Under the pieces are notes generated by a model that was not told the origin of the DNA, ran no database searches, and saw only the letters and a list, made by a program, of their open reading frames with translations. Both the position numbers and the translations under genes were made by a program. 64,000 nucleotides of DNA from an uncultured Bacteroides sp. (GTDB lineage: Bacteria > Bacteroidota > Bacteroidia > Bacteroidales > JACABE01), in assembly GCA_964636105.1 (NCBI GenBank), contig CAZWRD010000001.1, positions 21,917 to 85,916 on the forward strand, written 5' to 3'. Shown here in pieces: positions 40,331 to 63,515 of the stretch; the first letter of the stretch is position 1; each line of letters opens with the position of its first letter.

Positions 40331-43300
40331 ATGAAAACAAATGTTTACTTTTCAGAAAAAAGTAATTTGTTCATCATCAACACACTAAAGTATTTTTTTG
40401 TTACTTTAGTTTTGATATTTACAATGGGAAATAGTGCAAAAGCACAAAATTGTTCAGTTAATGCAAATATTGACTTTACTTTATGTGCAAATGAGCCTCT
40501 CCTATTAGTAGGACAAAAAGCAGGATTATTTTACGGAAGTGGGACAACAACATGGTCACAAATTAGTGGACCAACCTTAAATATATTGTCGCCCAATGCA
40601 TTAACCACAGCAGTTACGGGACATGTAGGAAACACAGTCTATAAATTTAGGATTACAACCAAATGTTTGGATGGAACTCTAACATATGATGATGTTACTT
40701 ATACTGTAAAACCTATAACTCAGTCAAATGCAGGACCTGACCAAACCATTTGCCCAGGAAGCCCTGCTGGGTTAATGTCAGCAAATTCTGTTGGAGTAAA
40801 TGAAACTGGCTCTTGGCTGGTAACAGGTACAAACAATGGCGTTACAGTAAGTAATTCATTAGCTCCAACTTCTGCATACAACTTAGATGCAACCAAATCG
40901 GGTGTAACCAAAATGGTTTGGACTATAAATAACACAAATAGCTGTTTATCAAGAGATACCATGATTATTACAAACCGAGGAGGTGTAAGTCCTGTAAATG
41001 CAGGAACAGATAAAATCATGACTAATTGCTATTCAAGCACACAAACCACTAGTATGACGGCTAGTTTTGGAGGGAGTGGAATTGATGGACAAATTGGGAC
41101 ATGGACACTTTTAACTGGTCCTAGTATTCCAACTATCGTAAGCCCAAATAGTAACACTACCAATGTAACTGGATTAATAGAAGGAACATACAAATTGCTA
41201 TGGTCAGTTAGTGGTCCTTGCGCAAATGGAGCAGATACTGTTCAAATAATTGTACCACCAGCTACATCAAATGTTACAAGTGTTTCAATTAATTCTATCC
41301 CTGCGTTTTGCGATGGAAGAACATCAGCTTTATTAACAGCCACAACTCCATTATATACAAATGAAACCGGATTGTGGACAAAAACATCCGGTCCAGCAGG
41401 TGTAGTTATTGAAAATCCCACAAACCCCTTAACAAATATAACAGGCTTAAACGGAAGCAATAGTTATGGTTTTAAATATACAATTACGAATTCATTAACG
41501 GGATGTTCATCAAGCAATACGACAACACTCAGTTATTCTCCTCCTGCAAGTATTGATATTTCAGTAGATCAAACGATATTACCTTGTGGACAAACTTTTG
41601 CTTTTATTCCATATACAACCAGCGGTGGAGGTACAGTACAATGGAGTATTATAAGTGGACCAAAAACACCAACATACAACACAATTCCAACTAATTATGC
41701 TAATGCAAGTGGATCTCCATTAACGATAAACGGATTAACAGTTTCGGGAACTTATGTAATTAGACTAAAAAAATCTTCAGGTACCGGACCAAGTTGTAAT
41801 ACCGTTTTTGATGATGTAACCGTTATTGTATCAGCAAACCCAACTGGATCGAATTCAGGAACAAAACAAATTCTTGCTTGTAATATTACACAAACAGCCC
41901 TTGCAGGGAATCTACCATATGTAGGTATAGGTTCATGGACACAGGTAAGTGGACCAAATACTGCAACAATAGATTCTGTTAATAAATTTGATTCACCAAT
42001 AAAAAACATGGTAAGCGGAATCTACAAATTTCGTTGGCTAATTACCGCAGGACCTTATTGCTCAACACAACAATCTGATGTAACCATTGTTGTAGTTTCA
42101 GCTAATCCATCGCAAGCAAATGCAGGACCTGATGTAACATCTTGTGCAAATACACCTTTATACCTAAATGGTAATAATCCTTTACTAAACGAAGTAGGTT
42201 CATGGTCTGTTATTCCTTCTTCCGGAATAAGTTTTTCAGATGTAAATTCACCAAATGCAATTGTAAATGGTTTAGCTGCAAATACTACATATCAATTTAT
42301 TTGGAAAATACAAAATGCTTGTAGTTTCAACACAGATACTATGATAGTAACAACAAACAATATTACTGGACCAATTCAATCAAATGCAGGACCAGACCAA
42401 TGTAAAAATGCAGGAACAACCAATACAACTTTAGCCGGAAATAATCCAGGAACTAGTACCGGAACTTGGACACAAATAAGTGGAAATTCTGCAACAATTA
42501 CAAACCCAAATCTTAATAATACAACTGTTACAGGATTATCTAATGGAACATATACTTTTGAATGGTCATTATTATCAGTTGGAGCATGTAATCCAACAAG
42601 AGATACAGTTATAATTACAATTTCTTCACCTGCAACAACAGCCAATGCGGGAAGTGACCAGCAAATTTGCGGAAATTCTGCTAACTTACTGGGTAATATT
42701 CCCTCTATCGGAACTGGAACATGGTCGCAACTATCTGGTAATGGTGGAGCCACAATTAATGATTCAAGTTTAAACAATGCTAATGTTTCAGGATTAACAA
42801 ATGGAGTTTATAACTTTTTATGGACAGTATCAAATAATGCTTGCCCAGCAAATTCAGATACTGTAAAAATATACGTTACAAATCCACCAACAGTTCCAGA
42901 TGCAGGTTTGGACTTCTCCGTTTGCGGTTATGATACTACTTCTTTAGATGCTAATATAATCACAACAGGAACAGGAACTTGGCTTTTTGTAAGTGGACCA
43001 AACACACCCACTTTTTTAAATGCAAATAACCCAAAAACAAAAGTAACAGGATTGATAACAGGTACTTATGTTTTTAAATGGTCAAGTTATAGTGGTCCAT
43101 TCTGCCCAAGTAATTCAGATAATGTTTCAATATCTGTTGTATTACCAGCCAATGCAGGCATAGACCAAAATTATTGCGAGGCTACTACTACAGTCAATTT
43201 AAGTGGTACAAATCCCTCCACAGGAACATGGTCGCAAATTAGCGGACCTAATACATCTCTAATTACAACTACATCAACAAATACTGCAACTGCATCAAAC

Positions 43301-46300
43301 TTAATAACAGGATCTTATAGTTTCTTATATTCTATAAATGCACCTGGATGTACAAGTAAAGATACTATGTTAGTTAATTTATACGCTCCTCCAACTGTAG
43401 CAAATGCAGGTTCAGATTTATCTTATTGCAACGAAGATACCATCCTATTATCTGGGAATATACCCATTTTTGGCACAGCAACATGGACAAAACTTTCAGG
43501 ACCTTCTGGCGGAAATTTTAAACCAAATGCCAATTCACCAAATGCAATATTTACAGCATCTACAGCTGGAACTTATGTTTTTGTCTACAAAATAAGTAAT
43601 TATACTTGTAGCAATTCTGATCAAGTAATAGTAAGAAATTATGCTGTACCAACAAATGCAAATGCAGGTTTTGATCAGAATGCAATTTGTACAAATTCAA
43701 CGTTAATGTCTGCAAATTTACCTTCAAATGGTCTTGGTAACTGGACTTTAATTAATGGCCCAAATACACCCAATATTGTTTCTCCAATCCTTCCAAACAC
43801 AAATATTAACAATTTAATTCCTGGAGAATATAATTTTGAATGGAATATTAGCAGTGGTATTTGTCCAATTAAAAAAGATACAGTTAAATTGATTGTAAAT
43901 CAACCACCAACCAATGCAAATGCAGGGGTTGATCAGCTTTTGTGTAATACATCTTCTTTAAATCTACAGGGAAATACACCAAGCATCGGAACAGGAAACT
44001 GGACACAGTTTAGTGGACCTAATACTGCTGTTTTTACAGATGAAACAAGTCCTAGTACTTTAGTTAGCAATTTAATAAATGGTACATATATTTTCAATTG
44101 GACAACATCATTTTCGCCATGTTCGTCAACAGACCAAGTAATTATTACAAATTACCAAAATCCAACAACTGCAAATGCAGGTTCAGATATAAATAACTGC
44201 CTGTTTACGCCACTTGCTTTAAATGCAAACAATCCAAGTCTTGGTATTGGACAATGGAGCCAGCTTTCAGGTCCCGTAACTACAAATATACTTTCACCTA
44301 ATTCCCCAAATTCTTATATATTGGGAACCGTGCCAGGAAATTATTCGTTTATTTGGACAATTAACAACGGAATCTGTAATTCAAGCAAGGATACTGTTGA
44401 TGTTGTTGTTTCTGATATTCCAACAATGGCTATTGCTGGTTCAGATCAAACAATATGTAATGTTACAACTTTTAATTTAACAGGAAACACTCCTTCACAA
44501 GGTATTGGAACATGGACTCAAACAAGTGGTCCAATAATTAATATTAGCAACAATAACAGCCCTACATCAAGCGTAACAAATGTTTTGCCTGGCACATATA
44601 ATTTCATTTGGCAAACAAGTAATAACTTCTGTACTTCTACTGACAATGTGAACTTTACTGTTTACGGACAACCCGTTTCCAATGCTGGTAGTAATCAGGA
44701 ATATTGTAATACAAATTCGTTCCTAATGTCAGCTAACACACCTATTTACGGTACCGGAAATTGGACAAAAATAAGTGGTCCTAATACGCCAACCATTACT
44801 ACTCCATCATCACCAAATACAGTTATCACAGGCGCAACCACAGGAACTTATGTATTTAGATGGACTGTTTCAAATGGAAATTGCACACCGGTTACATCTG
44901 ATGTTACCATAACCAATTATGTTTTACCTACTATTGCTAATGCTGGAAACAACCAAAACATTTGTGCTACATCAGCCACAATGTCTGCTAATACAGTAAG
45001 CGTTGGAACAGGTTTATGGTCGCAAGAAAGTGGTCCAAATACTGCTACAATAACTAACCCAAATTCGAAAAATACAACAATAACAGGGTTAGTTCAAGGG
45101 TCTTATGTCTTTAAATGGACAATTAGCAATGGAAATTGTAGTTCATCATCTTCATTAGTTACAATTAATGTATCAGCAAATCCTACTATTGCAGATGCTG
45201 GAACTGCTCAAAATTTATGTAATGCGACTTCTGTTTCTTTAAGCGGAAACAATCCTGCAATTGGAAACGGTTCATGGACAATGGTAAGTGGTCCTAATAC
45301 ACCTTTATTTACAAATGCAAGTTTATTCAATACAGATGTAACCAACTTAACTAATGGCACTTACATCTTTAAATGGACTATCAGCAATGGTGTTTGTACT
45401 GCTTCTGAAAATCAGGTTACAATAACTAATAATCAATTACCAACCATTGCAAATGCAGGTGCAACTCAAAACCTTTGTAATGTTACTACTACAAATCTTG
45501 ACGGAAATATTCCAACTGTTGGAACTGGTGCTTGGTCGTTAATTAGCGGTCCTAATACGCCAACAATTACCAATTCTGCTTTAAACAATACTTCTGTAAC
45601 AAATATGATTACTGGAACTTATGTTTTCAGATGGACTATTTCTAATACAAATTGCACTCCTTCTTCAACTGATGTTACTATCAATAATGTTGAATTACCG
45701 ACAATTGCAGATGCTGGAAGTAACCAATCTTTCTGCAAAAGTCAAACATCAACTTCATTATCAGCAAATAATGCTATTATTGGAATTGGAACTTGGAGTC
45801 AGGTTTCTGGACCAACAACAGCTACATTCGGGAGTTTAAGTAATCCGATGACAAGTGTTTCTAATTTAGTTTACGGTAATTACATATTCAAATGGACTAT
45901 TAGCAATGGCAGCTGTACGCCTAGTACTTCTGAAGTAACATTACAACTTATCAATTGCATACCTATTGCTATTAATGATACGAATTCAACACCTGAAAAT
46001 ACTGCTGTAAGTGGAAATATATTACTAAATGATAGCGACCCAGATAATGACCCATTAGTGGTTACAAATTTTATAGTTGGTGGCATTAGCTATCCAGTAG
46101 GAACTTTAGTAAACATTCCAGGTATTGGAACGATTATCATTAATTCTGATGGTAGTTATACATTTACTCCTGCAACTCACTGGAGTGGTGTTGTTCCAAA
46201 TATTCCTTATACAATCTCTGATGGATTTGGCGGAACTGCAACTGCTGATTTGATAATTACTGTAACTCCAGTACCTCATTACATCGATTTGAGTGTAACA

Positions 46301-48388
46301 AAAAAACTTACTGATCCAAATCCGTTGATTAACGATAGTATATTTAAAAACGATACTGTAACTTTCACTATTGTTCTTAAAAACAATAGTCCTATTTTCA
46401 ATGCAACAAATATAGTTGTTTTAGATACTTTACCTTCTCAACTATCCTATGTTTCGGCTATAGCTTCTTATGGGAATTATGATCATGTAAGTGGACTTTG
46501 GACTTTGGCAACTTTAAATTCACTTGATTCTGCTTTACTTTATGTTAAAGCTAAAGTTGACACTTCTGCTGAAAATTATGCTTATATCATCAGTCATAAT
46601 AATCCAGATTCTAATTTGTATAACAACAAAGATTTTGCTAATGTTACTGTTACCAAATCATCTGGTGGAAATGATGGTGGTTTAGAAAGTAATGGTAATT
46701 TGGCTTCTAAAGTTGGTTTGCGTAACTTCTTACGCCACAAAGAAAGAAATGACATGTACGATCATCCTGAAAAACTGGAATTATTCTCGCCTGCATCAGT
46801 GGTAGCAGTTAAAGCTAAAGGTACACAATCTACTGAAATGATTAACTTTATACCAATGATTGGACCAACAAATACGCCTGCTTTGGTTACTACACCTTCT
46901 GATTTAATTGGAATTAGCAATGCCATTGAAGTTGTTGCGGTTGACTATTTCGATAATGTAAAACGTAAAGCTGCTATATTGGCTATTGCTTCTAATGTTG
47001 GCACAGTTTACGAACATACCAAAATGGTTTGCGATAGATTAGATGGTGGAAATCTGAAAAGTATAAACCATGTTTATATTAAAGAAATTCCTTTTATTAT
47101 GGCTAACATTGTACAGGATAACGGAAACGAAGACCTTACAGTTAGCTTTATTGCATACAAAAGCGGTAATACTTATTATATTGATAATGCTTGGGATTTG
47201 GAACAATACAATCCTACTGGTAATCATGCTGTTCTTAACTTCCAGGTATGGACAATTAACAAAGAACAAACGATTGAATTGGTTGGCAGATTATTGGATA
47301 GAATTAGTTTTATGGGCTATAATGTTGTTTACAAAAAAAGCATTACTTCTTTACCTGAGTTTCCAAAAGTTTATGTACAAAGCGGAAATTATAAAGAAGG
47401 TAATTTGGATATGAACTTGGTTAATTCCGATGGTGCTTCTGCAATTACGCTTGATGGAAACAAAGCAATTGTTGAAGATGGATTAAGATTCCCATTCAAT
47501 TACTCAAGTCCTATTCCTAACGCTTACAATAGTAATGTATCAGTTCCTACAGGAAACATTTTTGATATTGGTTTCAGTTTAAGTAATAATTCCTCTCAGG
47601 CTAAAGACGTATTGTATTTTGCTGATGGGCCTTGGGGTAGAGAGTTTGACGAAACTGGTGCGGTAATCTCTGATTTTAGTATTTCTACTCAGTTTAACCC
47701 TCCTTTATCTGGTGCTTTTAATTTGGGACGTAATGCAAACTTGGAAGGCTCAGTTAAAACTTATGCTTCTTTATATAGAGTGTTGAGAGTTGGTAACAAG
47801 TCTGTTAATCTAACTAATTACAATAAACTTGAGTTTACAGCTTTGGGTTCGGGTAGTTTTGATGTAATTATTAGCAAAGCAGGCATTTCAGCATGGAACG
47901 ATCAGTATAAAACTACTGTAAATCTGGATTATAATATTGCGAATAATTTCAAAATCCCGATTTCGCAGTTTGCCAATGCGCAAGGTCAGCACAACCTGGA
48001 TTTGAATGATGCTGTTTCGGTAGTTTTTGTGAAAAAAGGTAATAATTCTACTTATCAGAATTTTGCGATCAATGTTAGCGATATGAGATTCATAAATAAT
48101 TTCAGCGGTATTGATCCTAAAGCAGCTACTTTAAACCAGATTGATGTGTATCCTAATCCATTCAGCAGTAATTCTACAATTACGTTCAGTTTGAATAAAA
48201 CTGAAAATGTAAAAGTTGGCTTATATGATTTACAAGGCAAACTTATCAGATTAATTGCCGACAAACAATTTGGCATGGGTATCAACAACATTAATATTAA
48301 TGCAGATAATCTTGCTTCGGGTATTTATATGATTAAGGTTGAAACCAATAGTTTTAATTCTTACGAAAAAATTATCATAAGCAAATAA
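40331..48388 (+). CDS. Giant (2685 aa) T9SS-secreted repeat adhesin-like protein with type A C-terminal sorting domain
   Basis: Signal peptide ending SAKAQ, then about 21 tandem repeats of about 85 aa. A cadherin/Big-like module follows (NDTNSTPENTAVSGNILLNDSDPDNDPL), then a DUF11-like module (DLSVTKK...LDTLPSQLSYV). Next come about 480 aa with no motif I recognise. The protein ends in a Por_Secre_tail-type CTD (VYPNPFSSNSTITF...LASGIYMIKV). Confidence 0.9.
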   Translation: MKTNVYFSEKSNLFIINTLKYFFVTLVLIFTMGNSAKAQNCSVNANIDFTLCANEPLLLVGQKAGLFYGSGTTTWSQISGPTLNILSPNALTTAVTGHVGNTVYKFRITTKCLDGTLTYDDVTYTVKPITQSNAGPDQTICPGSPAGLMSANSVGVNETGSWLVTGTNNGVTVSNSLAPTSAYNLDATKSGVTKMVWTINNTNSCLSRDTMIITNRGGVSPVNAGTDKIMTNCYSSTQTTSMTASFGGSGIDGQIGTWTLLTGPSIPTIVSPNSNTTNVTGLIEGTYKLLWSVSGPCANGADTVQIIVPPATSNVTSVSINSIPAFCDGRTSALLTATTPLYTNETGLWTKTSGPAGVVIENPTNPLTNITGLNGSNSYGFKYTITNSLTGCSSSNTTTLSYSPPASIDISVDQTILPCGQTFAFIPYTTSGGGTVQWSIISGPKTPTYNTIPTNYANASGSPLTINGLTVSGTYVIRLKKSSGTGPSCNTVFDDVTVIVSANPTGSNSGTKQILACNITQTALAGNLPYVGIGSWTQVSGPNTATIDSVNKFDSPIKNMVSGIYKFRWLITAGPYCSTQQSDVTIVVVSANPSQANAGPDVTSCANTPLYLNGNNPLLNEVGSWSVIPSSGISFSDVNSPNAIVNGLAANTTYQFIWKIQNACSFNTDTMIVTTNNITGPIQSNAGPDQCKNAGTTNTTLAGNNPGTSTGTWTQISGNSATITNPNLNNTTVTGLSNGTYTFEWSLLSVGACNPTRDTVIITISSPATTANAGSDQQICGNSANLLGNIPSIGTGTWSQLSGNGGATINDSSLNNANVSGLTNGVYNFLWTVSNNACPANSDTVKIYVTNPPTVPDAGLDFSVCGYDTTSLDANIITTGTGTWLFVSGPNTPTFLNANNPKTKVTGLITGTYVFKWSSYSGPFCPSNSDNVSISVVLPANAGIDQNYCEATTTVNLSGTNPSTGTWSQISGPNTSLITTTSTNTATASNLITGSYSFLYSINAPGCTSKDTMLVNLYAPPTVANAGSDLSYCNEDTILLSGNIPIFGTATWTKLSGPSGGNFKPNANSPNAIFTASTAGTYVFVYKISNYTCSNSDQVIVRNYAVPTNANAGFDQNAICTNSTLMSANLPSNGLGNWTLINGPNTPNIVSPILPNTNINNLIPGEYNFEWNISSGICPIKKDTVKLIVNQPPTNANAGVDQLLCNTSSLNLQGNTPSIGTGNWTQFSGPNTAVFTDETSPSTLVSNLINGTYIFNWTTSFSPCSSTDQVIITNYQNPTTANAGSDINNCLFTPLALNANNPSLGIGQWSQLSGPVTTNILSPNSPNSYILGTVPGNYSFIWTINNGICNSSKDTVDVVVSDIPTMAIAGSDQTICNVTTFNLTGNTPSQGIGTWTQTSGPIINISNNNSPTSSVTNVLPGTYNFIWQTSNNFCTSTDNVNFTVYGQPVSNAGSNQEYCNTNSFLMSANTPIYGTGNWTKISGPNTPTITTPSSPNTVITGATTGTYVFRWTVSNGNCTPVTSDVTITNYVLPTIANAGNNQNICATSATMSANTVSVGTGLWSQESGPNTATITNPNSKNTTITGLVQGSYVFKWTISNGNCSSSSSLVTINVSANPTIADAGTAQNLCNATSVSLSGNNPAIGNGSWTMVSGPNTPLFTNASLFNTDVTNLTNGTYIFKWTISNGVCTASENQVTITNNQLPTIANAGATQNLCNVTTTNLDGNIPTVGTGAWSLISGPNTPTITNSALNNTSVTNMITGTYVFRWTISNTNCTPSSTDVTINNVELPTIADAGSNQSFCKSQTSTSLSANNAIIGIGTWSQVSGPTTATFGSLSNPMTSVSNLVYGNYIFKWTISNGSCTPSTSEVTLQLINCIPIAINDTNSTPENTAVSGNILLNDSDPDNDPLVVTNFIVGGISYPVGTLVNIPGIGTIIINSDGSYTFTPATHWSGVVPNIPYTISDGFGGTATADLIITVTPVPHYIDLSVTKKLTDPNPLINDSIFKNDTVTFTIVLKNNSPIFNATNIVVLDTLPSQLSYVSAIASYGNYDHVSGLWTLATLNSLDSALLYVKAKVDTSAENYAYIISHNNPDSNLYNNKDFANVTVTKSSGGNDGGLESNGNLASKVGLRNFLRHKERNDMYDHPEKLELFSPASVVAVKAKGTQSTEMINFIPMIGPTNTPALVTTPSDLIGISNAIEVVAVDYFDNVKRKAAILAIASNVGTVYEHTKMVCDRLDGGNLKSINHVYIKEIPFIMANIVQDNGNEDLTVSFIAYKSGNTYYIDNAWDLEQYNPTGNHAVLNFQVWTINKEQTIELVGRLLDRISFMGYNVVYKKSITSLPEFPKVYVQSGNYKEGNLDMNLVNSDGASAITLDGNKAIVEDGLRFPFNYSSPIPNAYNSNVSVPTGNIFDIGFSLSNNSSQAKDVLYFADGPWGREFDETGAVISDFSISTQFNPPLSGAFNLGRNANLEGSVKTYASLYRVLRVGNKSVNLTNYNKLEFTALGSGSFDVIISKAGISAWNDQYKTTVNLDYNIANNFKIPISQFANAQGQHNLDLNDAVSVVFVKKGNNSTYQNFAINVSDMRFINNFSGIDPKAATLNQIDVYPNPFSSNSTITFSLNKTENVKVGLYDLQGKLIRLIADKQFGMGINNININADNLASGIYMIKVETNSFNSYEKIIISK
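40445..45955 (+). repeat. Intragenic tandem array of about 21 divergent ~85-aa repeats
   Basis: Repeat consensus read from the translation: (A/S)NAG.DQ..C....L.GN.P..G.G.W(S/T)Q.SGPN...I......T.V..L..G.Y.F.WTISNG.C..S.D.V.I. I counted 21 W-x-x-x-(S/T)G(P/N) cores. The 3' units are the most alike. Confidence 0.85.
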
Positions 48389-52622: not shown

Positions 52623-52837
52623 TATTTTTTTATAAAGTCTTTAATAACATAAAATATAGCCAATGAAACAGATAACAATGAAAAAATTAAAGTAAAAATT
52701 GGCAATCCATTTGTAAAAAATTCATCAAGCTTAATACCTATATATACCCCTACCAAAATTATAAAAATCATTTGGAAAGCTATAGATGAATACTTTACGT
52801 AATCATTAAGAGAATTTTTAGGATTTTTCAGTTTCAT
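52622..52837 (-). CDS. AtpZ/AtpI-like small membrane protein
   Basis: YVKYSSIAFQMIFIILVGVYIGIKLDEFF plus a second TM matches the AtpZ/AtpI family pattern. The likely start is MKLKNPK at 52837. Confidence 0.6.
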   Translation of the reverse strand: MKLKNPKNSLNDYVKYSSIAFQMIFIILVGVYIGIKLDEFFTNGLPIFTLIFSLLSVSLAIFYVIKDFIKK

Positions 52838-53207
52838 TTTTAGAGTTGAACAAATTGTTATTCTTTCCACTATTCATATTACATGATCCAGAAAACTGAG
52901 CACCAGGCTCAATAGAAAGTTTATTGACTGTAATATCACCAATTAGCTTGGAAGTGCTTTTTAATGACAACATTTCCAACACATTAACATTAGCTTTTAC
53001 ACTTCCCGAAAAATCTGCATTTTGGCATACTATTTCACCCTCTACAGAACCAGTTGCACCAATTACAAGTTTCCCTTTAGCATTTATTGTTCCAATTAAG
53101 GTACCATCAATTCTGAAATCGCCATTTGCACTTATCTCACCTTTAACTAATGTTCCAGCTCCCAATATATTAATAGAGGAAGAATCAATTTCATTAACTT
53201 TTGCCAT
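52818..53207 (-). CDS. Bactofilin (polymer-forming cytoskeletal protein)
   Basis: Beta-helical repeats G.L.KGEI...GDFRIDG.L.G.I...GKLVIG..G.VEGEI, typical of the bactofilin/DUF583 fold. Confidence 0.85.
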   Translation of the reverse strand: MAKVNEIDSSSINILGAGTLVKGEISANGDFRIDGTLIGTINAKGKLVIGATGSVEGEIVCQNADFSGSVKANVNVLEMLSLKSTSKLIGDITVNKLSIEPGAQFSGSCNMNSGKNNNLFNSKNETEKS

Positions 53208-53282: not shown

Positions 53283-56084
53283 CTATTTAGTTTTTAAATA
53301 GATACTATTGAAAAAACTCTGATATCCTTCTATATCTTTCAATTTCATTAATACATTAAAATTTGTATTTGAGATAACATTATCTATAGGATTTGCATTT
53401 GATATTGACGAATAGATATAATCATTGGCTTTGATAGCTTTATAATAAATTAAGGCATCATCAGCAGTCGAAAATTGAGTAACTGATATAATATGAGTAT
53501 TTTGATTATAAATAAAACTATTAATTTCTAAATTTGAAGATGAATAAAATTTGCGATTGAAATCAGAAATTTTAATTTTTAAAACATTAATATTTACCTT
53601 ACTGGCATCTATCAATAAAATAAAAAAATGGGGCGAAACTTCGTTAAAATTATAAGCAGACATGATACTTGGTTCTTGTTTTGGCAGTACAATTTTTGTG
53701 GTATCAGCTTTATTAATAGTAGTATTTGTCAAATCTGTTTTAGGCTTTTCGTTCTCTTTTTCTACTTTATTTTCCTTTGAAACTTTTTCTTTTTCTGCCT
53801 TTTTATTATTTTTATTTTTAGATTTATCATTGCTTTCGGCAATTATTTGACCACTTGATAAACTTATGTCTCCTTTTTTTAAATAATCCAATACCATTTG
53901 TGCCAAAGGAACAATTTCATGATTTGGATAGGTTGATATCAAATTATTCAAACCATTAACCAATGTATCTTTCCCAAAAATTTTACCTTTAGATAATGCT
54001 TTTAGATATTCAAATTTAGGATAAATGGGGGTGATTTTAAATTTTTCGGTAGCAATCTGATAATCTGCAATCACTTTACTATAATTACCTAAAACAAATT
54101 CTTTGTAAGTTTCTTCATATAGCAAATTCACTTCATTGTTTTTTGCTCTAATCTCTTTGTAATAATTTGGATCTGAAATAATTTTAGCATAATCACTTTC
54201 AGGATATTTAGAAAGAATCAAGCCTTTATAATAATCTCGTTTGGTAGTATTATTTAAATCACTAAATATACGATATAACTGATAATATGCTTTAAGCGTA
54301 TTTTTACCTTCGGGAAATCTATTAAGAAGCGTGTCGTAAGTTTCCTGAGATTTTCGTAAATCTTTTAAACCTTCATAATAAATATAGGCTGTATTAAACA
54401 AAGCTTCTTCAACTTTCTCTTTTGATTTAAGCATTTTTTCATCGGTAAGAGGAAGATTTTTTAAGTAATAATTTTTATTTTTAGGATTATTCGCATTTTT
54501 CAATGTATCTCCAGCATCTGTTGAGTTTTCCTCATCTGACAATTCAGCTTTTTGATCACCATAATCAAAAGTTTGCTTATTACTTATACGCCAAAGGTCT
54601 TCTAATTTTCGCTTCCCCCATTTCTTTCCAAATTCAGAAAACCCAAAGCTCATTGTAGATGGATTATAAAAATACCATTCACCCATCGCATTTTGTCCTT
54701 GAGCATTAGCTCCTGGTCGTTGATTTGAATTTTGTTGCAGAACATTTAATGCCATCCTATTGGAATTTTCTAATTCTTTTTGCAATTGTTCTTCTTTTAA
54801 AATCTGAGCAATTACATTATTTATCTTCATATCTCTAGCATCTGGTTTCATTTTCGCCATTGCTTGCAAACTATCCTGTACCTTAACTACTTGAATGTTT
54901 CTAACTAATTCATTCAATACATTCGTTTTGCTCTTTATTAATTCGTAATTTGGGAAATCTTTTGGCAAAAACATTACAGTACTATCATAATAAGCCTGAG
55001 CATTTTCATAATCTGGTAAATCAAAATAAATATCCGCTAGCTTTAATGCTGAAACTGCTTTTTGATAATTATTTCCAGCACTATTACTTACAGAAAGTTT
55101 TAAATAATTAACACCATTCTCAAAATCTTTATTTTTTATAGCAACCTCAGCCATAGCATAATAAATTTGATCAAGAAATTCTTTGTTCTTTTGATCCTTG
55201 AGCATTTTAGTAAGTTTTTTCATCAAATCTTTGCTATCGCCACTTTTAGCATCATAACACATTGCCAAATTTATTTTGGCATTAAATGCCATTTCGTAGG
55301 GTGGATTTTTTTTGATTACTTTTTTATAAAGTTCAGAAGCTTTGTTAAGTTCTCCTGATTTCTGATAAATCTGTGCTAATATATATTTTAACCTAGTTTT
55401 GGTGTCTTTTTTCCAATTTTGACTAATGGCTGGAATTATAAATCCAATGGCTGGCTCGTAATTTTCTTGCTTTATATAAAACTCAGCATAAGCCATATTC
55501 ATATCTCTTTCGAGGTATTTTGGGGCATTTCCTTCATTAATTTTATTTTTAACTTGATCGAGAAATGACTGGGATATACCATACTCTCCAATTTGATTAT
55601 TTGCTCTTGCCAACCAAATCATGGCATCATACTTAATAGAATTATTTTTAAATTGGCTCAAAATAAAATTAAATGTTCTAATAGAAGCTCTATAATCTTG
55701 CTTGTAATAATTAGCTTTCCCTATCATTAGATATGCATCATCTATCCATCTGATATGTTCTTTGCCTTTTATAAAAATAGAATGCATTTTTATAACTTTT
55801 GCAGCTTTTTCAATTGCTCTATCCATTTGTGGATTAACCTTTTGAGCTTCATCCTTGGTTCCCAACTGGTAAACAGGCAAAATTTTCGAATAATTATCCT
55901 TTGAGGAAGTGGCAAGTTCTTTTACACCTTCCTTCAAACTCTCATTACCATTCCAATAGGCATTGTAATGAGCCGTTAAATTATGATAAACTCTTCTTGT
56001 AAAAGTACTTTTTTTAGTTGAACATCCAACAGTAAAAAAAAGCAACAAGAGCAATGCGTATAAATATGTATTTTTCCTAATCAA
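53283..56084 (-). CDS. sprE: SprE/PorW-like T9SS-associated TPR lipoprotein
   Basis: Lipobox FTVGC, followed by STKKSTFTRRVYHNLTAHYNAYWNG, an N-terminus I associate with SprE/PorW. TPR units run throughout its 933 aa, with an internal K/E-rich low-complexity segment. Confidence 0.55.
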   Translation of the reverse strand: MIRKNTYLYALLLLLFFTVGCSTKKSTFTRRVYHNLTAHYNAYWNGNESLKEGVKELATSSKDNYSKILPVYQLGTKDEAQKVNPQMDRAIEKAAKVIKMHSIFIKGKEHIRWIDDAYLMIGKANYYKQDYRASIRTFNFILSQFKNNSIKYDAMIWLARANNQIGEYGISQSFLDQVKNKINEGNAPKYLERDMNMAYAEFYIKQENYEPAIGFIIPAISQNWKKDTKTRLKYILAQIYQKSGELNKASELYKKVIKKNPPYEMAFNAKINLAMCYDAKSGDSKDLMKKLTKMLKDQKNKEFLDQIYYAMAEVAIKNKDFENGVNYLKLSVSNSAGNNYQKAVSALKLADIYFDLPDYENAQAYYDSTVMFLPKDFPNYELIKSKTNVLNELVRNIQVVKVQDSLQAMAKMKPDARDMKINNVIAQILKEEQLQKELENSNRMALNVLQQNSNQRPGANAQGQNAMGEWYFYNPSTMSFGFSEFGKKWGKRKLEDLWRISNKQTFDYGDQKAELSDEENSTDAGDTLKNANNPKNKNYYLKNLPLTDEKMLKSKEKVEEALFNTAYIYYEGLKDLRKSQETYDTLLNRFPEGKNTLKAYYQLYRIFSDLNNTTKRDYYKGLILSKYPESDYAKIISDPNYYKEIRAKNNEVNLLYEETYKEFVLGNYSKVIADYQIATEKFKITPIYPKFEYLKALSKGKIFGKDTLVNGLNNLISTYPNHEIVPLAQMVLDYLKKGDISLSSGQIIAESNDKSKNKNNKKAEKEKVSKENKVEKENEKPKTDLTNTTINKADTTKIVLPKQEPSIMSAYNFNEVSPHFFILLIDASKVNINVLKIKISDFNRKFYSSSNLEINSFIYNQNTHIISVTQFSTADDALIYYKAIKANDYIYSSISNANPIDNVISNTNFNVLMKLKDIEGYQSFFNSIYLKTK

Positions 56085-56339: not shown

Positions 56340-57728
56340 ATGTATTCTGAAATCAACGGCAGAAAATTAAGTAATTCAGCAAATAAAGAAATTTATTTGA
56401 TTACTGATTACAAATTGCAAAACATAAAAAATGTTGTAATTTGCGATGCTTTAATTTTAGATTACTCTGATGATGAGGGTTGTAAGAATTTTATTAAAGA
56501 AATCAGAAACTCACTAATTGAATCAATTTATTTAGTACCTGTTTTTATATATTCTCAATACTCAGTAGTTGATGATTTTACAACCTATTTGAGTGATGGA
56601 GTATTTTCAATTATTAACGAACAAACTCTTGTAGAAAAAATACAAAATTTAATTCAACGTAGAGATCAACTGAAAGTAATTGAGGCTTCAACAACTGAAA
56701 GCCGAATAATAAATAAATTACTTAGATATCAATATACAAGAAATAAAGAATTACAACCTATCATTAATCACAAATCGCATATAGGGTATGAATTTCCACT
56801 TGTTAGTTCACATTTTCCTGATGAAGAATCGACAAGGCTAATCGCTATGCTGAACAATCTTTCTGAAAAAGATGTTTTTGTAAAACAATTTGTTGACAGA
56901 GTTCATATATGTAATCAATGTAATTCTGCTTTTTTAAATTATAGAGAAACTTGCCCAAAATGCAATTCGTATAATCTTGTAGCAGAAAGCCTTATACATC
57001 ATATTGAATGTGGTTACATTGGTTTAGAAAAAGCATTTGGAAATCCGCGACAACTCATTTGCCCCAATTGCGAAAAACAACTTTGGCAACTTGGCACCGA
57101 CTTCACAAAACCATCGGGAACATATAGTTGTAATAACTGCAAACATCTTTTTAGGGAATCAATAAAAAAAGCATTTTGTTTTAATTGCAAAAATACTTCA
57201 ACAATAGATTTACTTAATAATATAATTATAAGTAGTTATAAAATTACTGATAATGGTATAAAAATGGCTATTGGTGAACCTAAAAAAGAAATTGAGAAAA
57301 CAGAACCTAGCATTAGCGGTTTTGTTTCTTTTACAACTTTTACAACTTTTTTAGAATATGAAATTCAAAGAGCAAAAACGTCAAATACTTCAGTTTCAAT
57401 TGGAAAAATAAAAATTGATATTTCATTAAATGATAAGAATCGATTAGGAGTTAGATTATTAAAACTTGTTGAAGAAATTGGTGATTTTATTAAAAACACT
57501 TCTTCATCGGGAGATATTATTACTATTGGCCCAAACGATGTATTCTTAATTATTTCACCGTTTAACTCTTTAACAAAACTAGATTTTTTATTGGGCAATA
57601 TGCAAATTTCTGTTCAAAAAATGATAAGTATGGCTTTCCCAGATTTTGATATCAGTGTTAGAGTTAAGTCCAATTTTATAGATGGAAGAACTCAAAAAAA
57701 TGAAATGATAAATGATTTAATCAGATAA
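56340..57728 (+). CDS. Pseudo-receiver / multi-zinc-ribbon / degenerate GGDEF-like protein (function unknown)
   Basis: Residues ~20-105 are receiver-like (VVICDALILDYSDDEG, VPVFIYS). Residues 191-284 carry five CxxC pairs (CNQC, CPKC, CPNC, CNNC, CFNC). Residues ~325-450 align by eye to a GGDEF fold, but read TIGPNDVFLII at the signature position. Confidence 0.6.
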   Translation: MYSEINGRKLSNSANKEIYLITDYKLQNIKNVVICDALILDYSDDEGCKNFIKEIRNSLIESIYLVPVFIYSQYSVVDDFTTYLSDGVFSIINEQTLVEKIQNLIQRRDQLKVIEASTTESRIINKLLRYQYTRNKELQPIINHKSHIGYEFPLVSSHFPDEESTRLIAMLNNLSEKDVFVKQFVDRVHICNQCNSAFLNYRETCPKCNSYNLVAESLIHHIECGYIGLEKAFGNPRQLICPNCEKQLWQLGTDFTKPSGTYSCNNCKHLFRESIKKAFCFNCKNTSTIDLLNNIIISSYKITDNGIKMAIGEPKKEIEKTEPSISGFVSFTTFTTFLEYEIQRAKTSNTSVSIGKIKIDISLNDKNRLGVRLLKLVEEIGDFIKNTSSSGDIITIGPNDVFLIISPFNSLTKLDFLLGNMQISVQKMISMAFPDFDISVRVKSNFIDGRTQKNEMINDLIR

Positions 57729-57767: not shown

Positions 57768-58865
57768 TTATTTATCGCAATTTAGTGTAATTTTCACAAT
57801 AGTTCCAAGTCCTTGTTTGCTGGTAATACTAAAACTTCCATCAAAAAGTTTAATTATTCTTTTAGCAATCGTAATTCCAAGTCCAATTCCTAGTTGTTGA
57901 TTCATATCTTTATTAAACTGCATATAAGCCCCAATATCTGCTATTTGTTCTTCGCTCATCCCAATACCTTCATCAATAAAAGAAATATGCATTTTATTAT
58001 TTTCAATACCAGAAACAACTTTAATTATTGAATTTTTTGGTGAATATAAAATTGAATTTTCTAACATTTCCTTTAATAAATCTCGGTAAAATTGTTCAGG
58101 AATTTGTAATACAGCATCTTCTAATGACAATTTCAAGTCTTCAGTACGATTATATGCAGTTGCTAACTCATTGCATACTTCTTCAGTAATCAACTTAATA
58201 TTGGGTGAAAGCATTTGATGTAAATCTTTTATATCACCATTTTGAAGAGATAAAGATTCTAGTCTGTAAAAGAGCAGGGTTTTTAAAACTATCTTATTTA
58301 ACTTTAAACCAGCATTATAAATTAATGAAACAAATTCAATAATTTCATTTTTGGCCATCTGATTTTGCTCTGTTAATATCATGCTCGAAAAGCCAATAAT
58401 AGCTCTTAATGGTTCAGATATCTCTTTTGCAATTGGAGCACCCAGATTTAAAGTAAGCTCGTTAAGTTTTTTCTCGCTTCTGCGTTTAAATTCTTTAACT
58501 CTATTTAAACGAACTTCAACAGCCTGTATAACTTCTTCAATTGTAAAAGGTTTCGAAATATAATCATCAGCACCCATTTGCATACCTTTTCGTAAATCTT
58601 CTCTGGTATCTTTTGCCGTAAGAAAAATAAAAGGAATATTTACTGTTAAAATATTACGTCTTAATTCTTCAAGAACCTTAAAACCATCCATTTGCGGCAT
58701 CATAATGTCACAAATAATTAAATCGGGTTGTTTCTTGCGAGCTACATCAACACCAATGGTTCCATTTTCGGCTTGAAACATTTCATAACCTTCAGTCTCG
58801 AGAATTTCAATAATATTTTCGCGAACCTGTAGATTATCCTCAATAACTAGAATTTTTTCAGACAT
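57768..58865 (-). CDS. Receiver domain fused to a histidine-kinase-like module lacking the phospho-acceptor His
   Basis: The REC looks intact (LVIEDN, IICDIMMPQMDG, ISKPF). The DHp-like segment reads IAKEISEPLRAIIGFSSMI, with Lys where the H-box His is expected. The N box (MLENSILYS), G1 (DEGIGM) and G2 (GIGLGITI) are present. Confidence 0.75.
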   Translation of the reverse strand: MSEKILVIEDNLQVRENIIEILETEGYEMFQAENGTIGVDVARKKQPDLIICDIMMPQMDGFKVLEELRRNILTVNIPFIFLTAKDTREDLRKGMQMGADDYISKPFTIEEVIQAVEVRLNRVKEFKRRSEKKLNELTLNLGAPIAKEISEPLRAIIGFSSMILTEQNQMAKNEIIEFVSLIYNAGLKLNKIVLKTLLFYRLESLSLQNGDIKDLHQMLSPNIKLITEEVCNELATAYNRTEDLKLSLEDAVLQIPEQFYRDLLKEMLENSILYSPKNSIIKVVSGIENNKMHISFIDEGIGMSEEQIADIGAYMQFNKDMNQQLGIGLGITIAKRIIKLFDGSFSITSKQGLGTIVKITLNCDK

Positions 58866-58944: not shown

Positions 58945-60552
58945 ATGCCTAAAAATGTATTGATAACAGAAGACGATGCAGTTTCTGCCAAATTTTTGCA
59001 GGAAACCTTAAAAAAATTAAATTATAATGTTGTTGAAATTGCGCAAACAGCCGAAGAATCAATAAGTAAAGCAATTGAGTATAATCCTGACATTGTAATA
59101 ATGGACATTAACCTTCCTGGCGAAATAGATGGGATAGAGGCAACAAAAAGAATAAGAACAACACTAAAAATTCCTGTTATTTATTTAACTGGAGCCGCCG
59201 ATACCGATACACTTGAACGTGCATTAAAAACAGAACCAAATGGTTATCTATTAAAACCTTTCAAAAAACAGGAATTATTTACAGTTATTGAAATGGCTCT
59301 TTATAGAGATTCATTGGAAAAAAAATTAAAAGCCAATGAACAATTAATGGCTCTAACCCTTGAGTGTATTGGAGATGGGTTAATTACAACAGATACTGAT
59401 GGATATGTTACACTTATAAATAAAGAAGCAGAAAAACTTACGGGTTATTTTCTAAAAGATATTAAAGGAAAAAAAATTACAGAAATTTATCCTGTAAAAA
59501 TTGAAGGTTCAGATAAATTTTTCCAAAATTTCTTATCGCTTCTTAATCATTATCAATATAATGAAGAAAATCAGGATTTGATTTTATTTTCAAAAAATCA
59601 TAATTATTTACCTATAAACCAAACAATAGCGCCTTTAAAAGATGAAAACAAAACAATAAAAGGCTATATAATTACTTTTAGAGACATTTCTTTGAAGAAA
59701 AAAGCGGAAGAAACTTTAAAAAGAATAAACGAAGAATTGGAAACAAGAGTTAATGAAAGAACCATTGAACTTAAAAATAAAAACAAAGAGCTTGAAAATG
59801 AAATTAATAAGCGAAACATCGTTGAACACAATCTTTATAAAGCTTTAGAAAAAGAAAAGGAGCTTAATGAATTGAAATCGAGAGTAGTAACAACAGTTTC
59901 GCATGAATTTAAAACACCTTTAACTTCTATTTTGAGCTCAGTGGAACTTTTGCAAAGATATGAAACGAAAGATCCTGTGGATGAAAAAATTAGCAAACAT
60001 TATGAATTTATCAAACGATCAGCAAAAGTTCTAACTCAAATGATAAACGACATGCTTTTGATAGAAAAGATTGAAGCTGATAAATATGAATTTCATTTTG
60101 AAAAAGAAAATATTGAAAGATTTACGAAAAGCATTATTGATGAGTTTAAAGAAAGTACAGGTAAAAATCACATATTTAAACTAATAACAGAAAATATTCC
60201 ACAAGAAACAGACATTGAAAAAACTTTATTGAGAAGGATTCTGAACAATTTAATTTCTAATGCAGTAAAATATTCAGAAGAAAGTTCCGAAATAAATATA
60301 TCTTTGAAGTACAAGAAAAAGAGTTTTGAAATTTCAATTTCAGATTCAGGGATTGGGATTCCTGAAGAAGATAAAAAACACTTATTCAATCTTTTCCATA
60401 GAGCAAAAAATGTTATGAATTACGATGGTACTGGTTTGGGATTATCAATAATTCAACGATCACTCGACTTACTTAAAGGAAATATTACGTTTAAAAGCGA
60501 ATTAGGGGTTGGTTCTACTTTTACTGTAGTTTTCCCCGATTCAAAAAAATAA
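58945..60552 (+). CDS. Hybrid REC-PAS-histidine kinase
   Basis: N-terminal REC (LITEDDA, VIMDINLPGEIDG, LLKPF), a PAS-like region (GDGLITTDTDGYVTLINKEAEKLTGY) and a coiled coil. H-box TVSHEFKTPLTSIL, N box NLISNAVKYS, G1 DSGIGI and G2 GTGLGLSI. Confidence 0.88.
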   Translation: MPKNVLITEDDAVSAKFLQETLKKLNYNVVEIAQTAEESISKAIEYNPDIVIMDINLPGEIDGIEATKRIRTTLKIPVIYLTGAADTDTLERALKTEPNGYLLKPFKKQELFTVIEMALYRDSLEKKLKANEQLMALTLECIGDGLITTDTDGYVTLINKEAEKLTGYFLKDIKGKKITEIYPVKIEGSDKFFQNFLSLLNHYQYNEENQDLILFSKNHNYLPINQTIAPLKDENKTIKGYIITFRDISLKKKAEETLKRINEELETRVNERTIELKNKNKELENEINKRNIVEHNLYKALEKEKELNELKSRVVTTVSHEFKTPLTSILSSVELLQRYETKDPVDEKISKHYEFIKRSAKVLTQMINDMLLIEKIEADKYEFHFEKENIERFTKSIIDEFKESTGKNHIFKLITENIPQETDIEKTLLRRILNNLISNAVKYSEESSEINISLKYKKKSFEISISDSGIGIPEEDKKHLFNLFHRAKNVMNYDGTGLGLSIIQRSLDLLKGNITFKSELGVGSTFTVVFPDSKK

Positions 60553-62265: not shown

Positions 62266-62455
62266 TTTTCCTATTTTTATACTGTAATTTTCTTTTAGAA
62301 ATGACGCTTTTCGGTAAAACTGTCGAAAAAAATATTAAATCAGTAATAACTTCTAATGTTTTATAAACAAATGTATTACTAATATAAAAAACATTGAACA
62401 ATTTTTTTTGTTCATATTATTTTCTAGTTAAATACAATAATCCATTCAATTTTTA

Positions 62456-62463
62456 TACTTTTG
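62456..62463 (+). promoter_or_regulatory. -7 promoter box (TActTTTG) upstream of the phosphodiesterase gene
   Basis: Exact TAnnTTTG, 39 nt upstream of the ATG at 62502. It lies inside the TTG-extended ORF 62394.., which argues against that extension. Confidence 0.45.
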
Positions 62464-62501
62464 TTTTTGGAATTAAGAATCATTTTTATAAAGAATCAAG
62501 T

Positions 62502-63515
62502 ATGAGAAAATCAAGAATTTTGCTAATTGCATTTATATTTATTTCGCTTTTTACACAAATAAGAATACAAGCTCAGGATAAGTCATTTAAGTGCATCATT
62601 TTAGGAAATAGTGGCGGCACTGAGGGAAATATGTCTGCTTATATGTTATCTACACTTAAATCGGATAATTACATTTGTATTGATGCGGGAACATTACAAA
62701 ATGGGATTAGTAAAGCACTTAAAGAAAAAAGTTTCGGAAAATTTAAGCTTCCAAAAACAGAAAAACTAAATTCTGAAACTTATATTTTACAAAATTTCAT
62801 AAAAGGGTATTTGATTTCTCATGCTCATATTGATCATATTGCAGCGTTAGTAAGCAATGCCCCAATTGATAGCCGAAAATATATTTATGCCACACAATAT
62901 ACGATGGAAAATTTGAGTAATCATATATTTAACAATCGAATTGCTGCAAACTGGGCAAACGAAGGAACAAAAGAGCCTTTGAAGAAATATAAATATATTA
63001 CATTACCACAAAATCAGGATATTGAGCTAAATGAAACAGAGATGTCCGTTAAAACCTATTATACTAGTCATGGGAATGAATATATTTCATCTGCATTTTT
63101 AATCAAAGCTGGAAATAATCATTTTTTGTATTTCGGCGATTGTGGAAGTGATGAAATTGAACGGAACAATTATATGTTTGAAATATGGAACAATATAGCA
63201 AATCTGATTAAAGCAAAACAGCTAAATGCAATAATGATAGAATGCTCTTACCCCGACGAACAACCTGACAACATGCTTTATGGACATTTAAAACCCAGCC
63301 TACTTACCAAAGAATTGAATCAGTTAGCAAGAATAATTAATGAAAAAGAACCAGAAAAAGCTTTAAAAGGGTTGAAAATAATTATTTCGCATGTAAAAAC
63401 AAATGGCGATAAGAACGATAACTCTCTGAATACCATAAAATATCAACTGGAAAAAGGCAATAACCTAGATGTAAAATATATTTTTCCGGAACAAGGGGAA
63501 AAAATTGAATTTTAA
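62502..63515 (+). CDS. Exported class II 3',5'-cyclic-nucleotide phosphodiesterase (metallo-beta-lactamase fold)
   Basis: Signal peptide MRKSRILLIAFIFISLFTQIRIQAQD. Class II PDE signature region LISHAHIDHIAAL, then FGDCGSD and ISHVK. The overall length fits the PDEase_II family. Confidence 0.75.
   Translation: MRKSRILLIAFIFISLFTQIRIQAQDKSFKCIILGNSGGTEGNMSAYMLSTLKSDNYICIDAGTLQNGISKALKEKSFGKFKLPKTEKLNSETYILQNFIKGYLISHAHIDHIAALVSNAPIDSRKYIYATQYTMENLSNHIFNNRIAANWANEGTKEPLKKYKYITLPQNQDIELNETEMSVKTYYTSHGNEYISSAFLIKAGNNHFLYFGDCGSDEIERNNYMFEIWNNIANLIKAKQLNAIMIECSYPDEQPDNMLYGHLKPSLLTKELNQLARIINEKEPEKALKGLKIIISHVKTNGDKNDNSLNTIKYQLEKGNNLDVKYIFPEQGEKIEF

Follow-up and report, generated by a model that had tools for sequence, protein, structure and literature searches.

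The locus and its gene product

The stretch of DNA analysed here (the window) comprises 64,000 nucleotides of contig CAZWRD010000001.1 from an uncultured Bacteroides sp. At positions 56340-57728 of its forward strand lies a gene for a three-part protein built around the zinc-binding domain TackOD1, which is the subject of this study. The open reading frame (ORF) is complete, with an ATG start, 462 codons free of internal stops and a terminal stop codon, and homologues keep its N-terminus MYSEINGRKL. The gene is monocistronic, divergent from an upstream gene for a tetratricopeptide repeat (TPR) lipoprotein and convergent with a downstream gene for a kinase-like protein with a receiver domain (REC). 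In the genomes of the window's own clade the ORF is unbroken in seven out of seven cases (462-467 aa). The ratio of nonsynonymous to synonymous substitution rates (dN/dS) is 0.054 in comparison with locus L005 and 0.13-0.14 in comparison with L003, L004, and L006, at dS>1. The gene is under strong purifying selection, and the possibility raised in a first-pass annotation, that the ORF might not be conserved in related genomes, is dispelled.

The AlphaFold model of the full-length protein, built on 37 homologues, has a mean predicted local distance difference test score (pLDDT) of 86.8 and a predicted template modelling score (pTM) of 0.60; for a model of residues 1-312, these values are 91.1 and 0.78, respectively. 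The difference in pTM, together with pLDDT values below 50, marks residues 314-324 (57279..57311, +) as a flexible linker between TackOD1 and the C-terminal domain. Among the Pfam and NCBIfam families, only TackOD1 and, below threshold, some zinc-ribbon families match the protein, whereas Response_reg (PF00072) and GGDEF (PF00990) remain unmatched even at E<=10. Nevertheless, the architecture of three parts that had been read from the translation is real: the protein is soluble, consists of three domains and has no capacity to make cyclic di-GMP (c-di-GMP). The early suggestion that it senses or receives a signal and is no enzyme was the right class of idea. The statement that no characterised protein has this architecture also stands, as none was found in Pfam, by Foldseek against the PDB, by a profile search of the PDB or in the literature.

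The TackOD1 module

The central domain, residues 119-302 (56694..57245, +), matches Pfam TackOD1 (PF18551) with E=1.7e-48 and 165.1 bits against a cut-off of 32, over profile positions 5-188 of 188, and thus confirms a name that the first-pass annotation had put forward with reservation. In the model (pLDDT mostly 84-97), a two-helix N-terminal part is followed by a zinc-ribbon beta core. The domain was introduced as the output part of response regulators in archaea, among them the type REC-wHTH-TackOD1 with a winged helix-turn-helix domain. It is defined by 11 cysteines arranged as five CxxC and one HxxC, a pattern that has been likened to the zinc-binding insert of PriA, and is known from TACK archaea, "some bacteria" and thaumarchaeal type IV pilus loci, its function being called obscure (Galperin et al. 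2018, PMC5847659, the one paper in which a literature search found the domain named).

The window protein carries five CxxC motifs and one HxxC. All motifs picked out by eye in the translation were recovered, namely CNQC (191-194), CPKC (205-208), HHIEC (220-224), CPNC (241-244), CNNC (264-267), and CFNC (280-283), and they are invariant or nearly so among 37-40 homologues. The twelve ligands C191, C194, C205, C208, H221, C224, C241, C244, C264, C267, C280, and C283 (56910..57188, +) are thus indicated by conservation, and the full set is present in 68 of 81 aligned sequences. A clade formed by Salibacter, Crocinitomicaceae, and Cryomorphaceae (eight loci: L037, L039-L044, and L047; e.g., L042 9971-11377) has lost C205 and C208. 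The same eight loci have lost C267 without exception and C264 in five cases, while the remaining eight ligands are kept. Because the losses of C205/C208 and C264/C267 covary, we predict three nested zinc sites, an outer one formed by 191/194 and 280/283, a middle one by 205/208 and 264/267, and an inner one by H221/C224 and 241/244. The two motifs lost jointly would then share one site, and the Salibacter clade would possess a two-zinc TackOD1.

The flanking domains

The N-terminal alpha/beta domain (residues 1-112; 56340..56675, +) is modelled with a pLDDT of about 90. Compared by hhalign with a receiver profile derived from the neighbouring kinases, it reaches a probability of 24% and a pairwise E=8e-4. 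The alignment begins at REC beta2, such that the beta1-alpha1 unit of the receiver fold is absent, and places D41 (in "ALILDY") on the phosphorylated Asp and S72 (in "PVFIYS") on the conserved Thr. Bacteroidota members almost always have D41, whereas D, E, Q, or S occupies this position elsewhere; R56, Y64, L65, P67, and D86 are invariant throughout the family. Foldseek searches with the model of residues 1-312 gave nothing at E<=1e-3 and only sub-threshold receiver matches (E 0.17-1.0, probability 0.33-0.85), among them 4qpj_D (0.85), the CikA pseudo-receiver 2j48 (0.69) and PleD. Full-length structural alignments to the REC-GGDEF proteins WspR and PleD extend over more than 440 columns, but at a root mean square deviation (rmsd) above 20 Å. 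With modest confidence, "truncated pseudo-receiver" is a fair label. Of the earlier reading of residues ~20-105 as a receiver fold lacking the N-terminal acidic pair, the missing pair stands; the receiver identity has become less certain, given the 24% from hhalign.

The C-terminal domain (residues 325-462; 57312..57725, +) has a GGDEF fold. All of the best 50 Foldseek matches of the full-length model, out of 70 PDB matches at E<=1e-3, are GGDEF-domain proteins; the WspR domain 3i5b is aligned with a target template modelling (TM) score of 0.70 and an rmsd of 3.1 Å over ~145 columns, and a domain from T. maritima with a TM score of 0.74. A profile of 40 diverse family members matches the cyclase DgcR (6zxm) with E=5.6e-12, and from there down to 1e-3 also the 3ign cyclase, GcbC, DosC, the degenerate FimX, and WspR. 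While Pfam GGDEF does not match the window protein, a homologue from Rheinheimera (L075) passes the cut-off with 29.1 versus 23.8 bits. The domain is the most constrained region of the protein (domain dN/dS 0.026-0.136).

In the register of DgcR, the GGEEF signature corresponds to the family consensus n-e-s-v-F, and RKSD, the inhibitory site (I-site) of the general form RxxD, to r-e-s-D. In the window protein, the signature position is occupied by P398-N399-D400-V401-F402 (57531..57545, +) and the I-site position by S389-S390-G391-D392 (57504..57515, +). Relatives read NESxF, NNNTF, or SVNSF at the signature, which is dead in every family member. K358 takes the place of the first metal-binding Asp of the DxD motif and K366/N367 that of the N/D pair for guanine recognition; both sets of columns are unconserved across the family. 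The window protein thus has a GGDEF fold which is catalytically dead and lacks a canonical I-site. Both the degenerate signature and the missing RxxD had been noticed from the letters alone and hold on proper alignment, which yielded no intact GG(D/E)EF. By contrast, the proposed equivalence of IKID with DxD and of SLND with FKxxND is a chance resemblance, since these segments are about two residues off register and unconserved in the family, other Bacteroidales reading LSLRTPAA... instead.

Distribution of the family

The protein was at first taken for an orphan, which is wrong. A protein search revealed 44 clusters of homologues, most of them full length, at 34-99% identity. When one genome for each GTDB species was scanned, 103 loci emerged, 80 of which were kept. 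The family spans at least seven phyla. Carriers belong to Bacteroidales, Flavobacteriales, Cytophagales, Nitrospirae, Aminicenantes, Desulfuromonadales, Desulfobacteraceae, Fibrobacterota, Victivallales, and many Gammaproteobacteria, and include the cultured Rheinheimera metallidurans, Thalassotalea profundi, Roseivirga pacifica, and Salibacter halophilus. In the source records, the clusters are named solely "hypothetical", "GGDEF domain-containing protein", or "rubrerythrin/GGDEF domain-containing protein". An archaeal-type relative, P0044, bears a different C-terminal domain.

A polysaccharide-export operon in relatives

In most relatives, four co-directional genes, whose stop and start codons often overlap, encode a fusion of a TolC-like and a glycoside-hydrolase-like part, an HlyD-like adaptor, the TackOD1 protein, and a PgaC-like glycosyltransferase of family 2 (GT2). 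The arrangement is seen at L001 (4418-10706), and the same layout recurs across L009-L082. A GT2 gene lies within 6.5 kb of the TackOD1 gene in 72 of 81 loci, 46 of 54 in Bacteroidota and 26 of 27 elsewhere. Wherever coordinates are listed, it follows the TackOD1 gene directly, the genes for the adaptor and the 700-860 aa fusion protein being located upstream.

The fusion protein starts with an N-terminal signal or anchor and shows OEP/TolC-type matches in 7 of 20 members. Its C-terminus is TIM-barrel-like with an invariant D558-x-E560 in the consensus "HLDIEPH"; 4 of the 20 match glycoside hydrolase family 18 (GH18), and a hydrolase-like chain of the PDB, 10yv, is matched with E=1.2e-6. The adaptor (~350 aa, single-pass) is an HlyD-type membrane-fusion protein, whose scores for HlyD_D23 and HlyD_3 reach or exceed the Pfam cut-offs. 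The GT2 enzyme (436 aa, multi-pass) shows similarity to PgaC/IcaA, NodC, and chitin synthases, its match to TIGR03937 (PgaC_IcaA) at E~1e-47 remaining below the equivalog cut-off. GT2 orthologues also occur in Tenacibaculum, matched on the GT2 alone. As judged from these sequences, the parts list is that of a predicted synthase-dependent, tripartite export system, and the GH18-like and NodC/PgaC-like signatures hint that its polymer may contain N-acetylglucosamine.

Some members in Paenimyroides and Flavobacterium are only 315-320 aa long and have no GGDEF domain (L059 9908-10870, L060 4463-5425, L079 2892-3839), each followed by the GT2 gene at a distance of ~10 nt or less. Since these forms still sit inside the operon, the GGDEF module is dispensable in some lineages. 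This suggests that the receiver-like domain and TackOD1 form a core which acts with the machine, while the GGDEF domain would be an input module.

In some gammaproteobacterial loci, an ORF of ~240 aa with an N-terminal hydrophobic, signal-like segment directly follows the GT2 gene (L075 12617-13348; L076 12747-13472; L061 12648-13370, -). It may encode a fifth component of the system.

A literature search for zinc ribbon, GGDEF, and glycosyltransferase operon together found no description. The operon, the architecture of receiver-like, TackOD1 and degenerate GGDEF domains, and the exchange of c-di-GMP for kinases discussed below appear to be previously undescribed. The family DUF2652, "cyclase-like proteins in Bacteroidetes", was considered and proved to be unrelated.

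The adjacent kinase pair and the loss of the I-site

RxxD is present exactly five residues upstream of the signature in 28 of 28 members outside the main Bacteroidota branch (RETD, RQSD, RPSD). Among these 28 is L058, which stems from a metagenome-assembled genome labelled Bacteroidota. In all other Bacteroidota members the Arg is lost and replaced by S, L, F, T, K, or Q. The region then reads, for instance, TLATD, TLSTD, KPSE, or DSSC, and SSGD in the window, where D392 represents the Asp of RxxD that is kept in most Bacteroidales.

Two kinase-like genes lie next to the window gene. The first, at 57768..58865 on the reverse strand, encodes a protein of 365 aa with Pfam matches to REC (E=3e-30) and HATPase_c (E=7e-15) and none to HisKA; the second, at 58945..60552 (+), encodes a REC-PAS-HisKA-HATPase hybrid histidine kinase of 535 aa according to Pfam. 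Aligned with true kinases, the 365-aa protein has "PIAKEISEPLRAIIGF" in the place of their "TTISHEFRTPMTTI". The phospho-accepting His of its H-box is replaced by K, Q, or N in all ~31 orthologues, while visual inspection suggests intact ATP-binding boxes N, G1, and G2. From its sequence, it may be a conserved pseudo-histidine-kinase.

The 365-aa gene adjoins the TackOD1 gene or the operon in most Bacteroidota loci, and orthologues of the pair do so in Bacteroidota but never outside this phylum. The co-occurrence with two REC-kinases, which had been proposed as a check, was thus found. Among loci with enough flanking DNA, the kinases are adjacent in none of the 16 with an intact RxxD, as compared to 29 of the 33 that have lost it (not adjacent in 4). 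As the distribution mostly reflects a single deep phylogenetic split, the nominal Fisher p of 1e-9 is not readable as that of independent events. In a census of the first Bacteroidetes genomes, many histidine kinases and zero diguanylate cyclases were counted (Galperin 2005, PMC1183210). The simplest reading is that Bacteroidota would have swapped the c-di-GMP input of the regulator for a two-component input.

The clade of the window and its surroundings

The window and its closest relatives L003-L006 (60-87% identity) share the gene order TackOD1, REC-kinase-like (-), REC-PAS-histidine kinase. GT2, adaptor, and channel genes are absent from the loci L003-L006, as they are from the window. In L007 and L008 (45-46% identity), where neither a GT2 gene nor the kinases lie nearby, truncated HlyD-like ORFs with a retained N-terminal transmembrane segment are located directly upstream of the TackOD1 gene (L007 1413-2132, L008 9261-9938; 225-239 aa versus ~350 aa). 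These could be intermediates of operon decay or shortened functional partners. With GT2, adaptor, and channel genes missing from the loci of the window and L003-L006, and only a truncated adaptor-like ORF left in L007 and L008, the operon has been dismantled around the gene. An ORF of 123 aa at L008 8840-9211 (+), just upstream of the truncated adaptor-like gene, is composed of tandem "MQSFRST" heptad-like repeats and is probably a DNA tandem repeat, not a gene.

The remainder of the window is ordinary chromosome, with a division and cell wall (dcw) cluster, cargo genes of the type IX secretion system (T9SS) and housekeeping genes, and contains no exopolysaccharide (EPS) synthase. Upstream of the TackOD1 gene, 53283-56084 (-) encodes the TPR protein of 933 aa with a lipoprotein-type N-terminus (…FTVGCSTKKS), whose size and features are reminiscent of the T9SS lipoprotein PorW/SprE, and 52818-53207 (-) encodes a bactofilin. 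Both genes are syntenic upstream of the TackOD1 gene in L003-L005 and L007. The gene at 62394-63515 (+), syntenic in L003-L005, specifies a cAMP phosphodiesterase of class II (PF02112, E=1.7e-49) that begins with a signal-like segment; no further cyclic-nucleotide gene was seen among the annotated ORFs of the window. The T9SS cargo includes a protein of 2,685 aa (40331-48388, +) with K319L-like PKD, DUF11, and cadherin-like repeats and a Por_Secre_tail, and two paralogous proteins of ~700 aa (7576-9639, + and 10367-12520, +) which carry a "Reelin subrepeat B" domain and a CHU_C T9SS signal.

Proposed function and alternative explanations

We propose that the window protein is a non-catalytic regulatory adaptor which descended from a regulator of a polysaccharide synthase and is now coupled to two kinases, with a target that is not encoded nearby; we give this reading a probability of roughly 0.5. 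In this adaptor, a TackOD1 scaffold with three zinc sites would follow a truncated receiver-like domain and carry a dead GGDEF domain on a flexible linker. The family would have begun as the regulatory subunit, on the cytoplasmic side, of a synthase-dependent machine for exopolysaccharide export, which is predicted to consist of the PgaC-like GT2 in the inner membrane, the HlyD-like adaptor in the periplasm, and the TolC-like fusion with a glycoside-hydrolase-like domain in the outer membrane. Outside Bacteroidota, the dead GGDEF domain with its RxxD is most likely a c-di-GMP-binding switch that activates the synthase, in the manner of PelD, PssE, and YdaK. Since c-di-GMP signalling is scarce in Bacteroidota, the Arg of the I-site would there have been lost and the kinase pair fixed beside the operon. 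The pair has probably assumed the regulatory input, either touching or modifying the receiver-like or GGDEF-like domain. Because its H-box His is missing, the 365-aa protein may act by binding rather than phosphotransfer, as is the case for pseudo-kinases such as DivL. In the sub-clade of the window, finally, synthase, periplasmic adaptor, and channel would have gone from the locus, whereas the regulatory adaptor and the kinase pair were retained under purifying selection. The protein probably relays the output of the two kinases to a distant target, either a relocated synthase or a new partner.

Several observations weigh against this proposal. GT2, HlyD-like, and OEP genes are absent from the locus and from the entire 64-kb window, and no GT2 orthologue on the same contig was found for the window clade among the best 120 of 1,937 matches, such that a role as regulator of a synthase may no longer apply in the organism of the window. 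In L007 and L008, the protein is conserved although neither kinases nor GT2 are adjacent, which argues for a function independent of both. The anticorrelation of I-site and kinases largely tracks one phylogenetic split and comprises few independent events. In addition, the receiver assignment of the N-terminal domain is weak; by hhalign, the domain lacks the acidic pair of beta1, which binds Mg2+, and the Lys of beta5, both of which are required for phosphorylation. TackOD1, too, is without a significant structural neighbour in the PDB when the model of residues 1-312 is searched by Foldseek, the zinc modules of MCM, Rpb9, and HypA being matched only at E>0.3.

Two other functions have to be considered, both of which we regard as unlikely. 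The Bacteroidales protein might still be a nucleotide receptor, with a non-canonical c-di-GMP site or with GTP, (p)ppGpp, or cAMP bound in the dead GGDEF domain, and the kinases would be mere neighbours. Such a role would agree with the GGDEF-like domain being the most constrained part of the protein, with the retention of D392 in most Bacteroidales, with the binding of ppGpp and pppGpp by a PleD GGDEF-containing protein in PDB entries 9g85 and 9g86, and with the syntenic cAMP phosphodiesterase gene, 4.6 kb away in the closest relatives. It is difficult to reconcile with the replacement of the I-site Arg in all Bacteroidota members but L058, with the unconserved metal- and base-binding residues of the active site, and with the linkage of the kinase pair to 29 of 33 loci without I-site, nor did the early Bacteroidetes genomes contain diguanylate cyclases (PMC1183210). 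The protein might alternatively regulate transcription, TackOD1 and its helical N-terminal part serving as a DNA-binding output, the receiver-like and GGDEF-like domains as inputs, and the polysaccharide operon or other genes as the regulon. In most relatives, however, the gene lies between those for adaptor and synthase, and their codons overlap or abut. Stoichiometric subunits (PelD, PssE, YdaK) are typically encoded in this way, which speaks against such a regulator, as does the lack of a helix-turn-helix or any other detected DNA-binding Pfam family on the window protein; the Foldseek match to the DNA-bound OmpR-type regulator 8uvk is insignificant (probability 0.28, rmsd 18 Å). Nonetheless, the gene outlives the synthase genes in the window clade, the archaeal-type relative P0044 combines TackOD1 with a different C-terminal domain, and TackOD1 was introduced as the output part of response regulators in archaea, REC-wHTH-TackOD1 among them, its cysteine pattern being compared to that of the PriA insert (PMC5847659).

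That the gene is a relic of a lost polysaccharide operon, decaying and without current function, is very improbable. The absence of synthase, adaptor, and channel genes and the truncated adaptor-like ORF, the sole remnant in L007 and L008, would fit decay, but the ORF is intact in seven of seven genomes of the clade, 12 of 12 zinc ligands are conserved, and dN/dS is 0.05-0.14 at dS>1; on these selection data, pseudogene status was rejected. Least probable of all is that the protein has diguanylate cyclase activity despite its unusual signature. A GGDEF fold is present and D360 coincides with the second Asp of DxD by chance; PNDVF at the signature, K358 at the first metal-binding Asp, the absent N/D pair, and the lack of conservation of these positions in the family led us to reject cyclase activity.

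A regulatory adaptor derived from a synthase subunit accordingly remains our preferred reading for the window protein. For the family as a whole, we tentatively suggest an undescribed, widespread synthase-dependent secretion system composed of TolC-like/GH18-like, HlyD-like, and PgaC-like GT2 components with a TackOD1/dead-GGDEF gatekeeper, which Bacteroidota would have rewired from I-site to kinase input and which, in the window module, would have been freed from the synthase for a new target. In this wide form, the claim is a doubtful one.

That degenerate GGDEF domains sense c-di-GMP to switch polysaccharide synthases is an established theme (PelD, PssE, YdaK, BcsE). New are the three-zinc TackOD1 between a pseudo-receiver and a dead GGDEF domain and the four-gene export operon across at least seven phyla. 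That a second-messenger site is lost exactly where the operon has gained a two-component kinase pair as neighbour constitutes a natural experiment, and this contrast makes testable how lineages without c-di-GMP control the synthesis of biofilm-type polysaccharides. TackOD1, known before only as an archaeal "output domain", gains a concrete context; if the gatekeeper role holds true, its first functional context would be the coupling of signalling domains to envelope-spanning polymer machines. In the organism of the window, this is a genuine and conserved gene whose product is no enzyme and has its target away from the locus. The window copy is the least informative member of the family.

Comparison with known systems

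The archaeal TackOD1 regulators (REC-TackOD1 and REC-wHTH-TackOD1; arCOG06883) share the Pfam domain and a receiver-type domain N-terminal to it and, like the relatives described here, are tied to loci of envelope-spanning machines, in their case the thaumarchaeal type IV pilus. They differ by a canonical REC and by the absence of a GGDEF domain; the comparison names the domain and explains no function.

With respect to the operon, the nearest counterparts are BgsA/BgsB/TolC and the cyanobacterial cellulose synthase with its HlyD-like adaptor and TolC, which are under the kind of c-di-GMP control predicted for the relatives. For mixed-linkage beta-glucan, a tripartite system of GT2, membrane-fusion protein, and TolC has been described (PMC13438883). 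In BgsA, the c-di-GMP site resides in the C-terminus of the synthase itself (PMC5567048), whereas in the relatives' operon the separate TackOD1-GGDEF protein would carry the predicted site. Furthermore, the TolC-like protein of the relatives is fused to a glycoside-hydrolase-like domain, unlike in BgsA/BgsB/TolC, and the partner genes are absent from the window.

Regarding domain order, BcsE, which regulates cellulose secretion in enterobacteria, is comparable. According to Zouhir et al. (2020), it is reportedly a soluble protein with a degenerate REC-GGDEF tandem (the "GIL" domain), which senses c-di-GMP through an RxGD motif similar to an I-site and controls a GT2 synthase. It shares with the window protein a degenerate receiver followed by a degenerate GGDEF domain but has no TackOD1 insert, whereas the window family bears a three-zinc module of ~190 aa between the two degenerate domains. 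No BcsE chain is present among the 42 PDB matches of the family profile at E<=1.

PelD of Pseudomonas aeruginosa is the inner-membrane regulatory subunit of a synthase-dependent system which also comprises a hydrolase and an outer-membrane export component, and its degenerate GGDEF domain binds c-di-GMP at RxxD. Upstream of this domain, PelD has transmembrane helices and a GAF domain, it is not known to have zinc ribbons, and the Pel system employs the enzyme PelF, a glycosyltransferase of family 4, and the PelB/PelC export route, not GT2, HlyD-like, and TolC-like parts. PelD has been described as a c-di-GMP receptor on which exopolysaccharide production depends (PMC2170427).

PssE of Listeria monocytogenes and YdaK of Bacillus subtilis resemble the relatives outside Bacteroidota in their dead GG(D/E)EF with RxxD upstream and resemble the relatives' operons in that they are encoded together with a processive GT2 synthase and a glycoside-hydrolase-like component. 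In PssE, a DKDDA motif is preceded by RxxD five residues upstream, c-di-GMP is bound with a dissociation constant of 0.79 µM, and the protein is essential for EPS (PMC4125290); in YdaK, exchange of R202 or D205 for Ala abolishes EPS production (PMC5422440). Both are anchored by transmembrane segments and have neither TackOD1 nor a receiver-like domain, whereas the window protein is soluble, without RxxD, and not beside a synthase. The sequence relationship is undetectable beyond the generic GGDEF fold. By analogy, the relatives outside Bacteroidota, with a dead active site, an intact I-site, and a GT2 operon, would present the profile of the proven receptors PssE, YdaK, and PelD. The window copy lies outside an exopolysaccharide synthase operon and lacks RxxD; it represents a derived state, in which the I-site and the neighbouring synthase genes that its relatives share with these receptors have both been lost.

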